A stretch of DNA of 18,718 nt from a virus, in the UHGV virus genome UHGV-0133874, one strand, 5' to 3'. Below are positions 3,943 to 12,727 of the stretch, piece after piece. Under the pieces are notes generated by a model. That model ran no database searches and was not told where the DNA came from. It saw nothing but the letters and a program-made list of their open reading frames with translations. A program made the position numbers and the translations under genes. The stretch's first letter is position 1, and each line of letters begins with the position of its first letter.

Positions 3943-4169
3943 TGGCTGATGCAATGGATCTCGTACAGCAGCGCGTTGAAGAAGAACGCCAACGCCATAT
4001 CCGTGCTGCCCGTGCCAAAACGCCGGGCGTGTCCCGCGTGCTTTGCATTGAGTGTGAAGCGCCAATTCCGCCAGCACGCCGCCGTGCCATTCCGGGTGTG
4101 CAGCTTTGCATTACCTGTCAGGAAATCGCAGAGCTGAAAGGCAAACATTACAACGGAGGTGCTGTATGA
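3942..4169 (+). CDS. TraR/DksA-family C4 zinc-finger protein (phage TraR-like)
   Basis: 75 aa with CxxC-N17-CxxC (CIECEAP...CITCQE); AGGAG upstream. Confidence 0.8.
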   Translation: MADAMDLVQQRVEEERQRHIRAARAKTPGVSRVLCIECEAPIPPARRRAIPGVQLCITCQEIAELKGKHYNGGAV

Positions 4170-5023
4170 GCACCATCCTGAAATGGGCGGGAAATAAAAC
4201 CGCCATTATGTCCGAACTGAAAAAACATCTTCCTGCTGGCCCGCGACTGGTTGAACCTTTCGCGGGTTCCTGTGCTGTGATGATGGAGACGGATTACCCC
4301 AGCTATCTTGTTGCGGATATTAATCCTGATTTAATCAACCTCTATAAAAAGGTTGCTGCTGATTGCAAGGCGTTTATATCTCGTGCCAGAGCTTTATTTG
4401 AGGAAGCAAACAGGGATGTGGCTTATTACAACATAAGGCAGGAGTTTAATTACTCCACTGAAATTACTGATTTCATGAAAGCGGTATATTTCCTGTATCT
4501 CAATCGTCATGGTTACCGTGGGTTATGTCGCTATAACAAGAGCGGGCATTTCAACATTCCGTACGGTAATTATAAAAATCCGTATTTCCCTGAAAAAGAA
4601 ATTCGCGCATTTGCAGAGAAAGCCCAGCGGGCAACGTTTATCTGCGCCAGCTTTGATGAAACGCTGGCGATGCTGCAGGTGGGGGATGTGGTGTATTGCG
4701 ATCCGCCGTATGACGGTACGTTTTCCGGCTATCACACTGATGGTTTCACTGAAGATGACCAGTATCACCTGGCATCCGTTCTTGAACATCGATCATCAGA
4801 AGGATATCCGGTCATTGTTTCTAACAGTGACACATCCCTGATCCGTTCGCTGTATCGCAATTTTACTCACCACTACATCAAGGCAAAACGCAGCATCGGT
4901 GTGGCAGCTGGTGAGAGTAAATCTGCAACAGAAATCATCGCTGTTTCCGGGCCGCGCTGCTGGGTGGGATTTGATCCTTCGCGTGGCGTGGATAGTTCAG
5001 CCGTGTACGGAGTACGTGCATGA
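4166..5023 (+). CDS. dam: DNA adenine methyltransferase, Dam family (probably GATC-specific, N6-adenine)
   Basis: 285-aa product aligns along its length with E. coli Dam as recalled: [15 protein letters not shown] (AdoMet motif), [19 protein letters not shown] catalytic motif; GGAGG 6 nt upstream of ATG 4166. Confidence 0.9.
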
Positions 5024-7434
5024 GTCATGCCGATATGAACAACTGCTGCGGCTTTAACGAGGCTGCCGCAGCGTTCTCATGGAACAGCCCGAAAAAGGCC
5101 ATTAACCCTTATCTGGACCCGGCGGAAGTTGCGCCGGTTTCTGCGCTTTCAAACCTGATCACTCTGTACGCTGCCGATAACGAGCAGGAACAACTGCGCC
5201 GCGAGGCACTGAGTGATCAGGTCTGGGAGCGTTATTTTTTTAATGAATCACGTGATCCTGTCCAGCGCGAAATGGAGCAGGATAAGCTCATTAGCCGGGC
5301 AAAGCTGGCGCATGAGCAGCAGCGTTTTAATCCGGATATGGTCATTCTGGCGGACGTCAACGCCCAGCCTTCCCATATCAGCAAGCCGCTGATGCAACGT
5401 ATTGAATACTTCAGCAGCCTGTGCAGGCCAAAGGCTTATTCCCGCTATTTACGTGAGACAATTAAGCCATGTCTGGAACGACTGGAGCATGTACGCGACA
5501 GCCAGCTATCTGCATCTTTTCGTTTTATGGCAAGCCATGAAGGGCTGGACGGCCTGCTTATCCTGCCTGAAATGAGTCAGGATCAGGTGAAGCGCCTGTC
5601 TACCCTTGTCGCTGCGCATATGAGCATGTGCCTTGATGCCGCTTGTGGTGATTTGTATGCCACCGATGACGTTAAGCCAGAAGAAATCCGCAAAACATGG
5701 GAAAAGGTGGCAGCGGAAACCCTGCGTCTGGATGTTATTCCGCCTGCGTTTGAGCAACTCCGTCGGAAAAGAAACCGCCGTAAACCCGTGCCCTATGAAC
5801 TCATTCCGGGTTCGCTGGCGCGTATGTTGTGTGCCGACTGGTGGTATCGGAAATTATGGAAGATGCGTTGCGAATGGCGGGAAGAGCAGTTGCGTGCTGT
5901 CTGCTTGGTCAGCAAAAAAGCATCTCCCTATGTCAGCTATGAAGCCGTGATGCATAAACGTGAGCAGCGCCGTAAGTCGCTGGAGTTTTTCCGTTCTCAT
6001 GAACTGGTGAACGAAGACGGCGACACGCTGGACATGGAGGATGTGGTAAACGCCAGCAGCAGCAACCCGGCGCATCGCCGCAACGAGATGATGGCCTGTG
6101 TTAAAGGCTTGGAGCTTATCGCGGAAATGCGTGGTGACTGCGCCGTTTTCTACACCATCACCTGTCCGTCACGTTTCCATTCCACGCTAAATAACGGCAG
6201 GCCAAACCCGACCTGGACCAACGCGACAGTAAGACAAAGCAGCGATTATCTGGTCGGCATGTTTGCTGCATTTCGTAAGGCTATGCACAAAGCCGGGTTG
6301 CGCTGGTATGGCGTGCGGGTGGCTGAGCCGCATCATGACGGCACAGTTCACTGGCACCTGTTGTGTTTCATGCGCAAAAAAGACCGCCGCGCCATTACTG
6401 CATTGTTGCGTAAGTTTGCCATCCGTGAAGACCGCGAGGAGCTGGGCAATAACACGGGGCCACGCTTTAAGTCTGAGCTGATAAACCCGCGCAAAGGAAC
6501 GCCGACAAGCTACATTGCGAAATATATCAGTAAGAATATTGACGGGCGTGGTCTGGCTGGCGAGATCAGTAAGGAAACGGGTAAATCCCTGCGTGATAAC
6601 GCTGAATACGTTAATGCCTGGGCGTCTCTGCATCGTGTTCAGCAATTCCGCTTCTTTGGCATTCCGGGGCGTCAGGCTTACCGTGAACTGCGATTGCTGG
6701 CTGGTCAGGCGGCAAGGCAACAGGGTGACAAAAAAGCAGGTGCGCCGGTACTGGATAACCCGCGCCTTGATGCCATCCTGGCTGCTGCTGATGCTGGTTG
6801 TTTTGCCACTTACATCATGAAGCAGGGCGGCGTACTGGTTCCCCGCAAATATCACCTCATCAGAACCGCTTATGAAATAAACGAAGAGCCAACCGCCTAT
6901 GGCGATCACGGTATTCGTATTTATGGCATCTGGTCACCCATTGCAGAGGGCAAGATCTGCACTCATGCAGTGAAGTGGAAAATGGTTCGTAAGGCCGTTG
7001 ACGTTCAGGAGGCGGCAGCCGACCAGGGCGCTTGCGCCCCTTGGACTCGTGGCAATAACTGTCCCCTTGCTGAAAATTTGTACCAACAAGGGAAAGACAA
7101 ATCAGCTGATGGGGATACCAGAACGGATATCACCCGTATGGATGACAAGGAGTTGCACGATTACCTGCACAGTATGAACAAAAAAGAACGCCGGGAACTG
7201 GCTGCAAGGTTACGCCTGGTGAAACCGAAACGGCGTAGAGACTACAAACAGCGAATTACAGACCATCAACGACAGCAGCTCGTCTATGAACTGAAGTCCA
7301 GAGGATTTGATGGCAGCGAGAAAGAGGTCGATTTACTCCTTCGCGGCGGCAGTATTCCGTCAGGAGCAGGCCTGCGTATCTTCTATCGGAACCAGCGTTT
7401 GCAGGAAGATGATAAGTGGCGGGATCTGTATTAA
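5020..7434 (+). CDS. A: P2 gpA-type rolling-circle replication initiator (nicking endonuclease)
   Basis: 804 aa; HxH-type metal-binding motif ([10 protein letters not shown]) and tyrosine-containing active-site segment ([11 protein letters not shown]); start overlaps the dam stop (ATGA). Confidence 0.9.
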
Positions 7435-7503
7435 TTACGCGGGTTAACAATTCGTGCTCTTAATAATACCAGGCATATCAGGCTGATGAACGTAAAAAAA
7501 CGT

Positions 7504-7546
7504 TTTACATCAGTAAGATTATTATATACTGTAAATATAAACAGTG
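7504..7546 (+). promoter_or_regulatory. SOS-regulated promoter with LexA operator (CTGTAAATATAAACAG, 7529-7544)
   Basis: Near-consensus LexA box CTGT-N8-ACAG with AT-rich centre and TA/TG flanks, overlapping a -10-like TATACT (7525-7530), with -35-like TTTACA at 7504-7509. Confidence 0.7.
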
Positions 7547-7587
7547 GTTATGTGTACAGTATTGCTTGTGGTGTCATAGGAGGAAAA

Positions 7588-7776
7588 ATGCAGGACTATT
7601 TTTTGGAGTCTTTGAAGCTCCAGCGCATTGATTTTTTTCTTAAGCTTGTAGCGGCTAGTGAGTGTAGTGATGAAGAGAAGGGGCTGGCTCTGCAGTGGGT
7701 TTCTGAATTGACTGATGAACTCATGGCAAAAATCAGAAGCCACGAATACAACCGCTCAATGGATGTCATCAGCTGA
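7588..7776 (+). CDS. 62-aa ORF, first gene after the LexA box; possibly the N-terminal part of a disrupted tum-like antirepressor gene
   Basis: ATG at 7588 with AGGAGG 4 nt upstream; frame ends 10 nt before the DinI-like ORF, which is in the +1 frame. Confidence 0.5.
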   Translation: MQDYFLESLKLQRIDFFLKLVAASECSDEEKGLALQWVSELTDELMAKIRSHEYNRSMDVIS

Positions 7777-7786
7777 GGTGACTTTT

Positions 7787-8020
7787 ATGCGCATTGAAAT
7801 AATGATCGATAAAGAGCAGAAAATTAGCCAGTCTACCCTGGACGCCCTTGAATCCGAGCTTTACCGCAATCTGCGCCCCCTGTATCCCAAAACGGTAATT
7901 CGTATCCGCAAAGGTAGCTCTAACGGTGTGGAACTGACCGGACTGCAACTGGACGAAGAAAGAAAACAAGTGATGAAAATTATGCAGAAGGTGTGGGAAG
8001 ACGACAGCTGGCTGCATTAA
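7787..8020 (+). CDS. DinI-family protein (DinI / 186 Tum C-terminal-domain-like)
   Basis: 77 aa, MRIEIMIDKEQK...LDALESEL...KVWEDDSWLH matches E. coli DinI as recalled (MRIEVTIAK...IDALAGEL...ETWESADDWF); GAGGTG 6 nt upstream of the ATG. Confidence 0.75.
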   Translation: MRIEIMIDKEQKISQSTLDALESELYRNLRPLYPKTVIRIRKGSSNGVELTGLQLDEERKQVMKIMQKVWEDDSWLH

Positions 8021-8525
8021 GAAACGTTGCTGGCGTCTGAACTTGCTTCTGGCGTCAGCAAGGTTGAACAACGAGCTGTGCGAGGCGTTAGCCATCTGAT
8101 CAAAAGACATCAAATATCATATTGTATATCGTGGTCAAACGCTGGAAACTATCATTCCCGGTCAGAGGGGCTTCTTTCAATGTCCAAAAGAGTGAGATAG
8201 AGGATACAGGATGGGAAGAGCTTATGATGATTGTTCTTGGATTGACTTGGAATATTTGATGTCCATTATCTAATGGACTTGGTCTTGATAGTTATCACGA
8301 AAGAGGAAGCCAACGTCATGTATTTGAAGAGTATCTCTTACCTTTTGATTAATTATTGTCCAAGTTTTTCAAAAGCTTCTTATCTGGCGGTCGATACATG
8401 ATTTACTGTTGGATATGGTATTTAAAATTAATCTTTACACTGTGGTATATGCAGAATAGGATATTATCAATACAATCAAACCGTTTTCATACGGTTGTTA
8501 ATATTGCAATGTTATAGGTAATGTC

Positions 8526-9644
8526 ATGTATCTTTTCAAGTATTACCGTCCGGACTTCTTCTTCGAGAAAGCTATTCGTTATAATGAATTATATTTTTCC
8601 GCTCCTGCGCAATTGAATGATCCTAATGATCTCAATATAGATTATCGTTTTGATAATAAATTGAAATTATGGGATATTTTATTGCGTTCTCCTTGCGATA
8701 AATCCTATGAAAATTTGAGTCACATATTAGATTTGAGTAATTTGAAGATACATAAGGGATTGAATCGTATTTTTAGAGGAAAAAAAATAAAAAGTAGCAT
8801 TGAGTCATTAGATAGCCTGTTTGACTCACACGTTGATGAGATACGTAAGATCATAAATGATGGTTTACTACCTATCAATGTGATTAATTCCGCTATTTAT
8901 GGGAATATTCCTGAACCACGCCAATTTTTGGTCTCACTTTGCGAGAACAGTATCAAAGAAAGGTTGTATAGGAAAATAGTTCCTGCAGTATTCAGTGTGT
9001 CATTTTCAGCTAATGCGTTAGATCGTATGATGTGGGCGCATTATGCTGCAGGCTTTAGTGGTTGTGTTGTGATTTATGAAACGCAGGATTTTAATATTAA
9101 TGGCGTGCCACATCCTGGAATGAAGCTAAGAGAAAATTTATTTTCATCAGATAAATTTAATTTTCCAGTTAAGCAAATAAAATATAGTAATCAGGCTAAA
9201 GAGGTTTCACTTCTAGACCCAAGCGCAAATGTTGCAGAGTTATTTTTAACTAAAAATAGATTTTGGAGATATGAAGCTGAATATCGAATGTTTATTCCAG
9301 AGGCAAATGCAGGAATAGGGAGTGAGCGGCATGTTCAAAGACGCGTAAATCGAAATATTGGACATATTTTTCATCATGATGCTAATGTTGTTAAAGGGAT
9401 CATTTTTGGTCCTAGAATGTGTGAAATGAAAAAAGAAAGCATATGGAATTGTATCAAGTCAAATATGGAGAATTCAAATTCAACAATATGTTATTTTTTT
9501 GACTCTGAGTTATCAGCATCAGGAAAGATTACTATTTCAAAAGGGCAACGAGCGGAAAAAATGAAAAATTTCCCTTTGTTCAGGAACAAGTTAAGTCAGA
9601 CGGAAATGGCTAAAGTTTTGAAGGAAATTGGCATTACGAACTAA
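8526..9644 (+). CDS. DUF2971-like protein (372 aa), function unknown; candidate accessory/defence gene
   Basis: N-terminal pattern FKYYRPDFF...NELYFSAPAQLNDPND and central MWAHYAAGFSGCVVIYE resemble what I recall of the DUF2971 signature; gene is markedly AT-rich versus the phage backbone and sits alone between tum and cos. Confidence 0.6.
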   Translation: MYLFKYYRPDFFFEKAIRYNELYFSAPAQLNDPNDLNIDYRFDNKLKLWDILLRSPCDKSYENLSHILDLSNLKIHKGLNRIFRGKKIKSSIESLDSLFDSHVDEIRKIINDGLLPINVINSAIYGNIPEPRQFLVSLCENSIKERLYRKIVPAVFSVSFSANALDRMMWAHYAAGFSGCVVIYETQDFNINGVPHPGMKLRENLFSSDKFNFPVKQIKYSNQAKEVSLLDPSANVAELFLTKNRFWRYEAEYRMFIPEANAGIGSERHVQRRVNRNIGHIFHHDANVVKGIIFGPRMCEMKKESIWNCIKSNMENSNSTICYFFDSELSASGKITISKGQRAEKMKNFPLFRNKLSQTEMAKVLKEIGITN

Positions 9645-9798: not shown

Positions 9799-9900
9799 CG
9801 CGCGCTAACTCATAAATCCTAGATTATTAGTGGATTTATCTCATTGAAATGTGCACTATTCCCAGCATTGAGTTGTACCAGATGTCTTTATGGAGGGACT

Positions 9901-11667
9901 GTGGCTTTTGTAACTGATATTCGGCTTGAAGATAATGCTATTGCTGCACCTGCGACAGCACAGGTTATGGCTCAGAGGCTAGGATCTGTATTACGTAAGA
10001 GATATGAAGAATTCATCCATAAAAGAGAGTGTGCACCAGGCCAAGCAGACTATGATGTAAAAATGGCTAGCAGGGCTTTAGCTGCATTCACTATGTATCA
10101 GTTAGGATGTGTGGATGATAAGTATGCAGGGGAGTCTGTATGTGATAGTAGTGAAGATGGTGGTATAGATGGAATAGCAATCAACCATAACGAAAAAATC
10201 GTTGTTGTTGTTCAATCAAAATTTCACCAATCGGGAAACGGCACTTGGACAAGAGCCGATTTTATGTGTTTTAAGGATGCTTGTGAGAAGCTACAAAGTG
10301 AAAGATACGAATTATTTGATTCCATATTGCAAAATAAAAGCGGGGAAATAAGTGCGGCTTTAAGTAGTTTTGAATACAAGTTCATCTTTGCGATGGCGCA
10401 TACAGGTAAAAAAGGTGCTGCAGAGGAAATATTAAATGATATGCGGGAATGGCAATATCAATTAAACGCTGCAGCTTTTACACCTGAGGATGAGCCTAAA
10501 GAGAACTGGGGATTTCAGGTTCATTTAATATCCTCTGAAGATATGATGCATTGGTTACAGAATGGCTCTCGAAATCAAATTGATCTTAACAGGGTTGAAA
10601 TTGAGCGTTTTGGATTTTTGAATGAACCATATCAAGCTTTTTACGGGGCTATTAGTGGTGATCAAGTTGCAGAATGGTGGGAAGAGCATGGTGCTCGATT
10701 ATTTACAAAAAACATAAGGAATATGCTTGGTAAAACAGAAGTGAATGAGGAAATAAAAAAGACAGCTATAGATAATCCTGATATGTTTTGGTTTTATAAT
10801 AATGGGATTACTGTACTGGTTAAGGAAGTTGTTCCTCATAGACGAAACGCAGCTCCTAATATAGAGAGAGGGATTTTTGATTTTCGTGATGTAAGTGTCA
10901 TTAATGGTGCACAAACAGTCAGTAGTATTGGCGCATGTAAAGATGCACTTGGTGAAAACATATATAGACTCAAAGTGCCAGCTAGATTCATTGTTATAGA
11001 TGATGATACTGATAATTTAACTGCAAATGCAATTACAAAAGCTAACAATTTCCAAAATAGAGTATTGGGAAGAGATTTTGCATCGCAGCAGGCAGATCAA
11101 CATAGATTGGCAAGGGAGTTAGTGCTTGAAGGATATCAATATCAGTTACTAAGAACAGATGAAGATCATTCACAGACAAATACGAAAGTCATTGACTTGG
11201 ATGAGGCGCTCAATGCACTCGCATGTTTAAGTAAAAATAATACGGTTGTATCGACACTAAAATCAAATCGCGGTAGGTTTTTTGAAAATTTTGAAGGCTC
11301 TCTATATAAAACTATTTTCAATCCAAGATTAAGTGGTTTAAAACTTATCAATACTGTTCTACATTTTAGAGTTATAGATAAGTTGATCGGTAAAACATTA
11401 CTATCAGTAGATAAAACGACCCATAGTCGCAAGCATTTAATTATTACGCATGGTAATAGATACTATGCGTCTGTACTATTGAGCAACGTTTCTGGGATAC
11501 ATAATAGCTCAGAAATTCTTGTTCCAGATGAAAAAAATCTTTCCGAAGAATTAAGTGCATTAATTCAACGTGCTGAAGAGTACATTGAAGATAATTACCC
11601 GAATGCCTATCCGGCAAGATTTTTTGCAAATCCAACGAAAATACAAGAGTTATACGATAATGTTTAA
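9901..11667 (+). CDS. Protein with N-terminal Mrr-like PD-(D/E)xK nuclease motif and AIPR-like C-terminal region (abortive-infection-type); candidate anti-phage effector
   Basis: Open frame 9844-11667 (607 aa from TTG 9844; 588 aa from GTG 9901 with GGAGGG 3 nt upstream; ATG at 9967 also in frame). DGGIDGIAI...KIVVVVQSKF resembles the Mrr catalytic D...(Q/E)xK motif; WFYNNGITVL and INGAQT resemble AIPR-family motifs as I recall them; AT-rich. Confidence 0.75.
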   Translation: MAFVTDIRLEDNAIAAPATAQVMAQRLGSVLRKRYEEFIHKRECAPGQADYDVKMASRALAAFTMYQLGCVDDKYAGESVCDSSEDGGIDGIAINHNEKIVVVVQSKFHQSGNGTWTRADFMCFKDACEKLQSERYELFDSILQNKSGEISAALSSFEYKFIFAMAHTGKKGAAEEILNDMREWQYQLNAAAFTPEDEPKENWGFQVHLISSEDMMHWLQNGSRNQIDLNRVEIERFGFLNEPYQAFYGAISGDQVAEWWEEHGARLFTKNIRNMLGKTEVNEEIKKTAIDNPDMFWFYNNGITVLVKEVVPHRRNAAPNIERGIFDFRDVSVINGAQTVSSIGACKDALGENIYRLKVPARFIVIDDDTDNLTANAITKANNFQNRVLGRDFASQQADQHRLARELVLEGYQYQLLRTDEDHSQTNTKVIDLDEALNALACLSKNNTVVSTLKSNRGRFFENFEGSLYKTIFNPRLSGLKLINTVLHFRVIDKLIGKTLLSVDKTTHSRKHLIITHGNRYYASVLLSNVSGIHNSSEILVPDEKNLSEELSALIQRAEEYIEDNYPNAYPARFFANPTKIQELYDNV

Positions 11668-11698: not shown

Positions 11699-12727
11699 TT
11701 AGAAATGGTATTCTTGGAATTCAATAACACCTTCTTCTATGAAATTGTTTATTTCTTGTAATCTTTTTTGCAATGGCAATAATTCATTACGTACAAATAC
11801 TTTACTCGCCTTCTCTACATCTCCAAAGCCCCCAACATTATTAGGCATTATCCCCATCATTTGCGGCGGCACACGGTGTGCCGCCATCATGTCGTCCCGA
11901 CTCACGTTCTTGATATTCAGAAACTCATCCTTCGCCGCGACTTCTGACAACGGGATAATCTGAAGCCCGTCCTTTTTGCCGTTAGGAGAGTACATAAACA
12001 GGTTGCGGAAGTTGCCTGGCCCTTTGGCGCTTTTCATTGCGTTGCGGAGGTTGTTCACATCTTCTTGGTTCTGCGCGGCATCGGTCATGTACATGATGAA
12101 ACCTGCATGGCTGCCGTTGATGTAATACTTACGGCGGAACAGTGTGGCGGACTCGTTGAGCAGGGCTGACGGGATGGCAGAAAGATAACCTGGCAGGCCG
12201 TAGATCTCCTGGTTGATGTCCGGTTCCATCAGATGAAAAATGCTGCCTTTCGTGAACTGATACGGCTGGGCTGTCATACCGTATTGCACAAACCAGTAGG
12301 TATCCAGGTCTAATCCGCGTCGGGTGTATTTTGCCAAAGCTGGCTCAAGGGCGATAACTTCACCAAAGCGGTTCGTGCGTTTCTCCAGGTAGGCGTTACC
12401 AAATACCAGATAGTCCTGCACAAAACGCGAAAAAGCCTGCTGGCTAAGCAGCGGATGAGGGATATAGGTACTGGTCAGAATGTTGCACTTTACTGCAATC
12501 GGGGAACTGTGATGCACGGCGGCGCGGAAGGTGCGCGCCAGTCCATTAAAGCTGACGGGCGGCTCATACCAGCGATCCATCTGTACGCATTCCACATAGT
12601 CCAGCAGTTCGCGGCGGTCCAGCACGGGGATGGGATCACCAAAGCTGAAAGCCTCAGCCGTTGGGCCGTTGCTTGGTTTTGTGTCGTGATCAACTGTTAC
12701 CTGCTTGGTGTTTTTACGTTTGCTCAT
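11699..12727 (-). CDS. Q: Portal protein (P2 gpQ / 186 W family)
   Basis: 342 aa, position immediately downstream of the terminase genes on the minus strand; P2 Q is about the same length. Confidence 0.9.
   Translation of the reverse strand: MSKRKNTKQVTVDHDTKPSNGPTAEAFSFGDPIPVLDRRELLDYVECVQMDRWYEPPVSFNGLARTFRAAVHHSSPIAVKCNILTSTYIPHPLLSQQAFSRFVQDYLVFGNAYLEKRTNRFGEVIALEPALAKYTRRGLDLDTYWFVQYGMTAQPYQFTKGSIFHLMEPDINQEIYGLPGYLSAIPSALLNESATLFRRKYYINGSHAGFIMYMTDAAQNQEDVNNLRNAMKSAKGPGNFRNLFMYSPNGKKDGLQIIPLSEVAAKDEFLNIKNVSRDDMMAAHRVPPQMMGIMPNNVGGFGDVEKASKVFVRNELLPLQKRLQEINNFIEEGVIEFQEYHF

Follow-up and report, generated by a model that had tools for sequence, protein, structure and literature searches.

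The segment at positions 7504-8020 of the 18,718-nt viral genome UHGV-0133874, which is called the window below, is with high probability the SOS induction operon of a Fels-2-like prophage of the P2/186 family. It is present in its native two-cistron form, with a gene for an antirepressor (tumA) followed by a gene for a DinI-like protein (tumB) under the control of LexA. The arrangement of tumA and tumB in the window is the normal, conserved, and previously described one and represents neither a frameshifted nor a recoded tum gene. The two-gene form of tum in P2-like prophages of the Fels-2/PSP3 type is already known, as it is described in GenBank and by Lemire et al. 2011. Our analysis yielded direct observations on the anatomy of the module, the homologies of its products, the conservation of the two-ORF layout, the selection acting on the individual reading frames, and the similarity of the operator to known SOS operators.

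The gene content of the window is that of a P2/186-family (Fels-2-like) prophage. Two genes on the minus strand encode an integrase (222-1352) and a 186-type CI immunity repressor (1670-2245), the putative target of TumA, which belongs to a PHROG of transcriptional repressors and shares 33% identity with 186 CI over 175 residues (E 8e-38). A CII-like activator and a DNA methyltransferase are also encoded. The tum module begins 70 nt after the gene for the gpA replicase (5020-7434; Pfam Phage_GPA, E 1.4e-127) and has the same direction, a layout that is also found in 186, PSP3, and Fels-2. Genes of the DUF2971/PDC-S31 and AbiU-like types are located downstream of the module. The features by which a tum module can be recognized were all found in the window, namely the position after gene A, a promoter with LexA boxes as judged at the sequence level, a part resembling the N-terminal part of Tum, a DinI-like part, and a CI repressor of the 186 type.

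The promoter of the module corresponds to 186 p95. Its -35 hexamer TTTACA (7504-7509, plus strand) is invariant in all six aligned relatives and is separated by 17 nt from the sequence TACTGT, the annotated layout of 186 p95 having an 18-nt spacer. TACTGT is the putative -10 hexamer and a poor one, and it forms the first six bases of LexA box 1; the LexA site is therefore placed on the -10 element as annotated for 186 p95. A simple promoter scan did not report this promoter. LexA box 1 (TACTGTAAATATAAACAGTG; 7527-7546, unstranded) agrees with the LexA consensus at 17 of 20 positions and is conserved in the relatives while its flanks diverge: 15 of its 20 columns are invariant, compared to 2 of 15 columns in the spacer after the -35 hexamer and 4 of 21 in the 5' untranslated region of the aligned relatives. 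The core of box 1, CTGTAAATATAAACAG at 7529-7544, is the single exact match to CTGT-N8-ACAG in the 18.7-kb window. As 34 of 200 shuffled sequences contained at least one such match (0.17 expected), the bare 8-base pattern is weak evidence when taken alone. The near-consensus LexA operator that had been proposed at the promoter of the two-ORF module was nevertheless corroborated by the 17 consensus matches, by conservation, and by its location on the -10 element as in 186 p95.

A second LexA box (CAGTGGTTATGTGTACAGTA; 7542-7561, unstranded) with 14 of 20 consensus matches lies 15 bp downstream of box 1, so that the 16-bp cores of the two boxes have one base in common. A second box is also present in most of the relatives from Enterobacteriaceae. 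Over 42 nt (7522-7563), the operator shares 85-90% identity with the double SOS operators of ColE1 cea, of the pesticin gene of pPCP1, and of Klebsiella bacteriocin plasmids, and about 840 plasmid records match this 42-nt operator. Judged by its sequence, the operator is a colicin-type pair of overlapping LexA boxes with a 15-bp offset. Like the operators of ColE1 cea, pPCP1 pst, and the Klebsiella bacteriocins, it has two LexA boxes 15 bp apart in the arrangement ...CTGT-N8-(A/C)CAGTGGTTATNTGTACAGTATT, but the operon under its control would encode a prophage antirepressor and not a bacteriocin. Compared with 186 and PSP3, which have a single box, the colicin-like double operator suggests that derepression is tighter and occurs later, which is a modest point.

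The first ORF of the module, tumA (7588-7776, plus strand), encodes a protein of 62 aa and ends with the stop codon TGA at 7774-7776. Its Shine-Dalgarno sequence, read as AGGAGG at 7578-7583 on the plus strand, is part of a block extending to the ATG (7578-7590) that is invariant at 11 of 13 columns. We used the 62-aa protein as a query for a species set of 33 genomes (Escherichia, Citrobacter, Enterobacter, Klebsiella, Serratia, Pantoea, Tatumella, Erwinia, and others), and the length of 62 aa was conserved in 29 of the 33 loci. Gene callers often extend tumA too far, to 84-101 aa, by using ATGs upstream of the promoter. A 96-aa reading from the ATG at 7486 was rejected in the window because this ATG lies upstream of the -35 element. 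The protein matches PHROG 698 over its full length (E 5.9e-38), and tumA has a pN/pS ratio of 0.07 over codons 1-42 and of 0.17 over codons 43-62. An AlphaFold2 model of TumA shows a two-helix hairpin (pLDDT 88).

The original prediction had left it to an alignment whether 186 Tum matches the upstream ORF, and the answer depended on the method. BLASTP of the 62-aa ORF against 186 Tum gave no alignment. We therefore searched 1.84 billion representative proteins exhaustively with HMMER, using the ORF as the query. The relatives recovered were all small stand-alone proteins, and 25 diverse ones were aligned with the ORF to obtain a profile. This family profile aligned residues 4-44 with residues 4-44 of 186 Tum in register (hhalign probability 94.6%, E 6.9e-8). 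The motif common to the TumA family and Tum is roughly (L/I)xR(I/V)(D/E)hhh(K/R)Lhxxxx-C-xxx(D/E)(K/R)xhAhxWhxEL, where h is hydrophobic and x is any residue. The match of the profile to PSP3 TumA was weak (hhalign E 0.005). On the basis of the profile alignment, the 62-aa ORF appears to be a remote homolog of the antirepressor part of Tum.

The 62-aa ORF might instead be unrelated to Tum, a small gene that by chance precedes a prophage dinI gene. This explanation would account for the failure of BLASTP, for the absence of a Pfam family and the annotation of PHROG 698 as 'unknown function', and for the outcome of the search of the AlphaFold2 model against the PDB, which yielded generic helical hairpins, none with E <0.001, and no specific neighbor. 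We consider it improbable, because besides the in-register profile alignment, the genomic position, the layout of the LexA promoter, the DinI partner, and the type of CI are all as in 186. Moreover, the annotation of PSP3 and PMC3121763 treat the upstream half as an antirepressor, and TumA-like genes were found behind LexA boxes even where a DinI gene is lacking. The latter is the case for 13 of the 33 species loci and also for phages of the ESSI-2 type, which fits the view of TumA, the homolog of the Tum antirepressor part, as a self-sufficient antirepressor.

Antirepressor activity, that is, binding of CI and prevention of its operator binding, is reportedly known for 186 Tum from work of Shearwin et al. 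in 1998. For PSP3 TumA, the activity goes back to a personal communication of G. E. Christie; both are quoted in PMC3121763. The antirepressor function of TumA in the window is proposed by analogy with these two proteins, the only ones for which it is known.

The second ORF, tumB (7787-8020, plus strand), encodes a protein of 77 aa and follows the stop codon of tumA after a spacer of 10 nt in the +1 frame. Its Shine-Dalgarno sequence, read as GAGGTG at 7775-7780 on the plus strand, overlaps the TGA of tumA; at this place the relatives have purine runs of the GGGG or AAGG type, with spacers of 3-12 nt. The assignment of TumB to the DinI family, already made in the original prediction, was supported by the Pfam DinI match (E 6.6e-23) and by a match to the solved structure of E. 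coli DinI, 1GHH (E 2.7e-6). TumB also corresponds to positions 71-148 of the 151 positions of PHROG 189. The description of 186 Tum as a protein of about 146 aa with a DinI-like C terminus was equally correct: Tum is 146 aa long, and BLASTP aligns TumB with Tum residues 71-145 (41% identity, E 3e-24). The pN/pS ratio of tumB is 0.11.

Two RNA structures were considered at the borders of tumB. A hairpin at 7765-7782 that might occlude the Shine-Dalgarno sequence of tumB was not adopted, as it folds in the window, in Fels-2, and in Klebsiella phi4.1 but not in SEN8 and SopEPhi. A stem-loop after the tumB stop codon (8023-8065, plus strand; RNA fold -29 kcal/mol) is located where 186 has the partial terminator t95a and may represent a weak terminator or a transcript-end hairpin. 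It was not called a terminator, because it lacks a U tract and has a z-score of only -1.6.

The relationship between the two reading frames centers on a run of five A residues (A5; 7728-7732, plus strand), which in the normal allele belongs to the codons GCA-AAA-ATC (Ala-Lys-Ile) of tumA. The frame of DinI is open upstream to 7712 and has an ATG at 7715, in accordance with the earlier statement that it is open to at least 7715 and overlaps the end of the 62-aa ORF in the +1 frame. Deletion of one A from the run leads to a single fusion with the domain order of Tum; the predicted fusion of the two ORFs thus was right, whereas the predicted size of about 149 aa was not, as the fusion protein has 143 aa. 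Three possibilities had been considered, inactivation of tum by a 1-nt insertion, separate expression of the two halves, and use of a +1 frameshift, and of these only separate expression withstood the analysis described below.

All six phage relatives, Fels-2, PSP3, Yersinia phage MLG42, Klebsiella phage ST437-OXA245phi4.1, SEN8, and SopEPhi, contain two ORFs. The spacers in this order are 10, 3, 12, 11, 11, and 11 nt long and the relative frames of DinI are 1, 0, 0, 2, 2, and 2. The tumA stop codons of these phages are TGA, TAG, or TAA, each with its own restart. Of the 33 species loci, 20 have a DinI gene directly downstream. Spacers of 8-12 nt place this gene in frame 0 at 6 loci, in frame 1 at 5, and in frame 2 at 9, and no locus is fused. 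Both ORFs have their own stop codon, Shine-Dalgarno sequence, and ATG in the six phage relatives and in all 20 DinI-bearing species loci. Two ORFs with stop and restart throughout the homologs were the very observation that the original prediction had named as speaking against a frameshift. The module is present in about 1,125 of 5,426 complete E. coli genomes. The 30 listed E. coli matches that were sampled across the ranking all contained a separate 'hypothetical protein' and/or 'DinI-like family protein' and no gene spanning both. As a population probe for the A run, we searched complete E. coli genome records for the exact 66-nt stretch around it; the A5 version was present in 255 records and the exact A4 version in none.

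The selection acting on the overlapping stretch was frame specific. For the overlap at 7714-7773, the pN/pS ratio is 0.17 in the frame of ORF1 compared to 1.21 in the frame of DinI, and the DinI frame upstream of the ATG contains in-frame stop codons in three of five relatives. One Arg codon in the tail of tumA reads AGA in the window and CGC in three relatives; two bases have changed here without altering the amino acid. Among the aligned relatives, the A run varies by substitution only, being GAAAAAA in MLG42 and GCGAAAA in SopEPhi. An open stretch of 25 codons is expected by chance with a frequency of about 30% ((61/64)^25). That the DinI frame is open for 75 nt before the tumB ATG is fortuitous, and the A5 run is an ordinary coding stretch.

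These data bear on the idea that ribosomes undergo a programmed +1 frameshift at GCA-AAA-A, or that transcription slips there, so that a minor TumA-DinI fusion is made beside the two separate products. Following a +1 slip on AAA-A, re-pairing of tRNA-Lys would be feasible, and in the lineage of the window and in Fels-2 no stop codon interrupts the +1 frame between 7712 and the DinI ATG. However, recoding at this site would require a constant relation of the frames, which is 0, 1, or 2 among the relatives, and the frame of the would-be linker evolves neutrally and carries stop codons in relatives upstream of the DinI ATG, while selection acts on the frame of ORF1. Reading of the sequence beside the run revealed neither a slow codon nor a stop codon nor an upstream Shine-Dalgarno-like stimulator such as known +1 sites employ, and the openness of 25 codons is readily explained by chance. 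A run of five A residues is also shorter than those that support transcriptional slippage. The proposed use of a +1 frameshift is contradicted by these findings, and we regard it as very unlikely.

Still less credible is the assumption that tum was once a single gene of about 146 codons that was broken when one nucleotide was inserted into the A run, so that the prophage can no longer be induced by the SOS response: the restoration of a 143-aa ORF with Tum-like domain order by deletion of one A, the fused Tum of 186 and, in the phage collection, of about 28 close relatives, and the existence of natural fused A4 alleles are consistent with it, but the split A5 form predominates (255 to 0 in E. 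coli, with the two-ORF form and no fusion across the inspected phage records and the 33 species loci), purifying selection maintains the frame of ORF1 over the 15 codons past the A run, as exemplified by the exchange of AGA for CGC, the DinI ORF is likewise conserved and each cistron retains its own Shine-Dalgarno sequence and ATG, stop codons interrupt the DinI frame in relatives, and in relatives with varying frames and spacers of 11 or 12 nt, an identical 1-nt change would not join the two ORFs. A further argument comes from Fels-2, which is 97.8% identical in this region and, according to Bunny et al. 2002 as cited in PMC3121763, makes lexA-null Salmonella inviable; Fels-2 thus appears to be SOS responsive.

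We searched the hypothetical 143-aa fusion against 5.8 billion proteins for naturally fused alleles. One protein (P0183) is identical to the hypothetical fusion; it is encoded by four draft or read-assembled contigs (loci L018-L021) in which the DNA reads GGCAAAATCAG, corresponding to A4. Three other 143-aa fusions (P0184, P0185, and P0187) result from 1-nt deletions a few codons further on. Two A4 fusions (P0189 and P0190) belong to a prophage remnant beside carotenoid genes on at least seven contigs that are separate from the E. coli A4 contigs; this remnant lacks gpA and has a truncated portal gene and a degenerate LexA box. The fused alleles arose sporadically and are derived rather than ancestral; in some assemblies they may instead reflect homopolymer errors, for example at locus L018, where gpA is also fragmented. 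A fragmented gpA is present in the NCTC assembly UGED01 as well and points to indel errors. These rare alleles show that some strains at least tolerate a fused protein. It is conceivable, though we consider it rather doubtful, that the A5 run is a recurrent mutational toggle between split Tum of the Fels-2/PSP3 type and fused Tum of the 186 type, the change from A5 to A4 having arisen at least twice, in E. coli prophages and in the carotenoid-linked remnant.

The closest known system is the STM2728/STM2726.1 pair of Fels-2 in Salmonella Typhimurium LT2 (NC_010463), for which the identity of 97.8% at the DNA level extends over 7440-8018. Fels-2 has a 62-aa ORF with two residue differences, an identical 77-aa DinI protein, the 10-nt spacer, the +1 frame, the A5 run, and the double LexA operator; it differs in its host and in a downstream 243-aa ORF of the size of 186 orf97. 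The tumA and tumB genes of PSP3 (NC_005340) are also separate cistrons behind a LexA-boxed promoter after gene A and encode a TumA of about 60 aa and a DinI-like TumB of 77 aa. The PSP3 record describes tumA as 'similar to 5' end 186 tum; UV induction of prophage' and tumB as 'similar to dinI and 3' end of 186 tum'. In contrast to the window, PSP3 has a very divergent TumA, a 3-nt spacer with both genes in frame, and a single LexA box that matches the consensus at 19 of 20 positions.

The Tum/p95 operon of 186 shares with the window the position after gene A, a LexA box that begins with the -10 hexamer TACTGT, the order of the domains, and a 186-type CI as target, but the domains are fused in one polypeptide with a linker of about 25 residues, the LexA box is single, and orf97 lies downstream. 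The 186 record also annotates a 77-aa DinI-like 'truncated Tum' starting at an internal GTG where the DinI domain begins, and the DinI part may therefore be produced alone even in the fused phage 186. Lemire, Figueroa-Bossi and Bossi 2011 (PMC3121763) described Tum as resembling an antirepressor fused to DinI, tum as split by a stop codon in Fels-2 and PSP3, and the upstream gene of PSP3 as the antirepressor. The dinI-gfoA/gftA operons of Gifsy-1, -2, and -3 treated in the same paper are similar to the module in that they are LexA controlled and combine a DinI homologue with a small antirepressor whose target repressor is not cleaved. They differ in that dinI comes first, that the prophages are lambdoid, and that deletion of dinI had no effect on induction. 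A review of regulatory genes of P2-like phages (PMC3448106) mentions neither Tum nor SOS nor LexA.

From the data described above we infer binding of LexA, co-transcription of the two genes, binding of TumA to CI, and the role of TumB. LexA bound to the two overlapping boxes would keep the sigma-70 promoter with its -35 hexamer TTTACA and -10 hexamer TACTGT shut. DNA damage would lead to cleavage of LexA, derepression of the promoter, and formation of a bicistronic mRNA, from which two separate proteins would be translated, each via its own Shine-Dalgarno sequence and ATG. TumA, corresponding to the N-terminal part of Tum, would bind the 186-type CI and strip it off its operators, so that the lytic genes are turned on, by analogy with 186. 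TumB, corresponding to the DinI-like C-terminal part of Tum, may modulate RecA filaments and in this way tune the SOS response, as would be expected from its relationship to DinI.

The tum module, which is carried by about one in five complete E. coli genomes, determines whether a very common class of P2-like prophages of E. coli, Salmonella, and Klebsiella awakens upon DNA damage. The 62-aa 'hypothetical protein' of PHROG 698 that precedes prophage DinI genes could be named TumA, the antirepressor half of Tum. If the rare fused proteins were functional, they would provide a live example of the origin of 186 Tum by fusion, or of the split form by fission, and the induction behavior could change as well. 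The prophage in the window is best viewed as SOS inducible and as having a tum that is not broken.

The expression signals of the tum operon were compared with those of related phages and of colicin-type genes. By sequence comparison, the SOS operator of the window consists of an overlapping, colicin-type pair of LexA boxes (7527-7561) offset by 15 bp, whereas 186 and PSP3 each carry a single LexA box. Over 42 nt, this operator shares 85-90% identity with those of ColE1 cea, the pPCP1 pesticin gene and Klebsiella bacteriocin genes. An ATG at position 7486 lies in frame with tumA, the ORF of the inferred antirepressor, and gene callers lengthen tumA from there (by 7486-7587) to 96 aa; many tumA-like database entries are 84-109 aa long. 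As this ATG is located upstream of the -35 element of the promoter, the 96-aa version was ruled out as an annotation artefact.

At the junction between tumA and the DinI-family gene tumB, both the stop codon of tumA and the Shine-Dalgarno sequence of tumB lie within a hairpin (GTCATC-AGCTGA-GGTGAC, 7765-7782), an arrangement suggestive of coupled translation of the two genes. Its folding is shared by Fels-2 and Klebsiella phi4.1; among the relatives compared, no folding was found in SEN8 or SopEPhi. The DNA methyltransferase ORF (4106-5023) overlaps the start of the replication gene gpA (5020-7434) by 4 nt. According to the annotation of the 186 record, translation of A needs translation through the end of the preceding orf84, and by analogy the methyltransferase-gpA pair may be coupled in the same way.

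In rare natural alleles, a 1-nt deletion joins tumA with tumB to give proteins of 143-144 aa (P0183 to P0190). These alleles were found in E. coli contigs (L018 to L021) and in a remnant adjoining carotenoid genes (L014 to L017). Shortening of the A5 run to A4 was the fusing change in two separate lineages; the other fusing 1-nt deletions were located at nearby positions, each in single contigs. Some of the fused alleles may be sequencing errors. The protein database search with a hypothetical tumA-tumB fusion also retrieved two proteins of 170 and 210 aa (P0225 and P0270) in which a phage CII-family domain (PF06892) and a DinI domain occur together; these could be products of chimeric prophage genes or of miscalled ORFs.

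The stretch separating the tum operon from the portal gene (11699-12727, minus strand) contains two cargo genes (8526-9644 and 9844-11667), one encoding a DUF2971 protein (PADLOC candidate PDC-S31) and the other a 607-aa AbiU/Abi-alpha-like protein. Judged from their sequences, both resemble anti-phage defence genes. In Fels-2, SopEPhi and others, this position is taken up by different genes.

In an alignment of the TumA family (A1), a C-terminal tail, K-N/S-P-Q-x-GG-x3-5-GG-x-(L/F)-Q, was conserved in distant members (P0147, P0149, P0153, P0156, P0173, P0178, P0180 and P0181); the TumA-like protein of the window has no such tail. TumA-like genes located behind a LexA box and lacking a downstream DinI gene were present in ESSI-2-type phages (L004 and L005) and in 13 of the 33 species-representative loci (L022 to L054), which shows that the antirepressor half also occurs alone.
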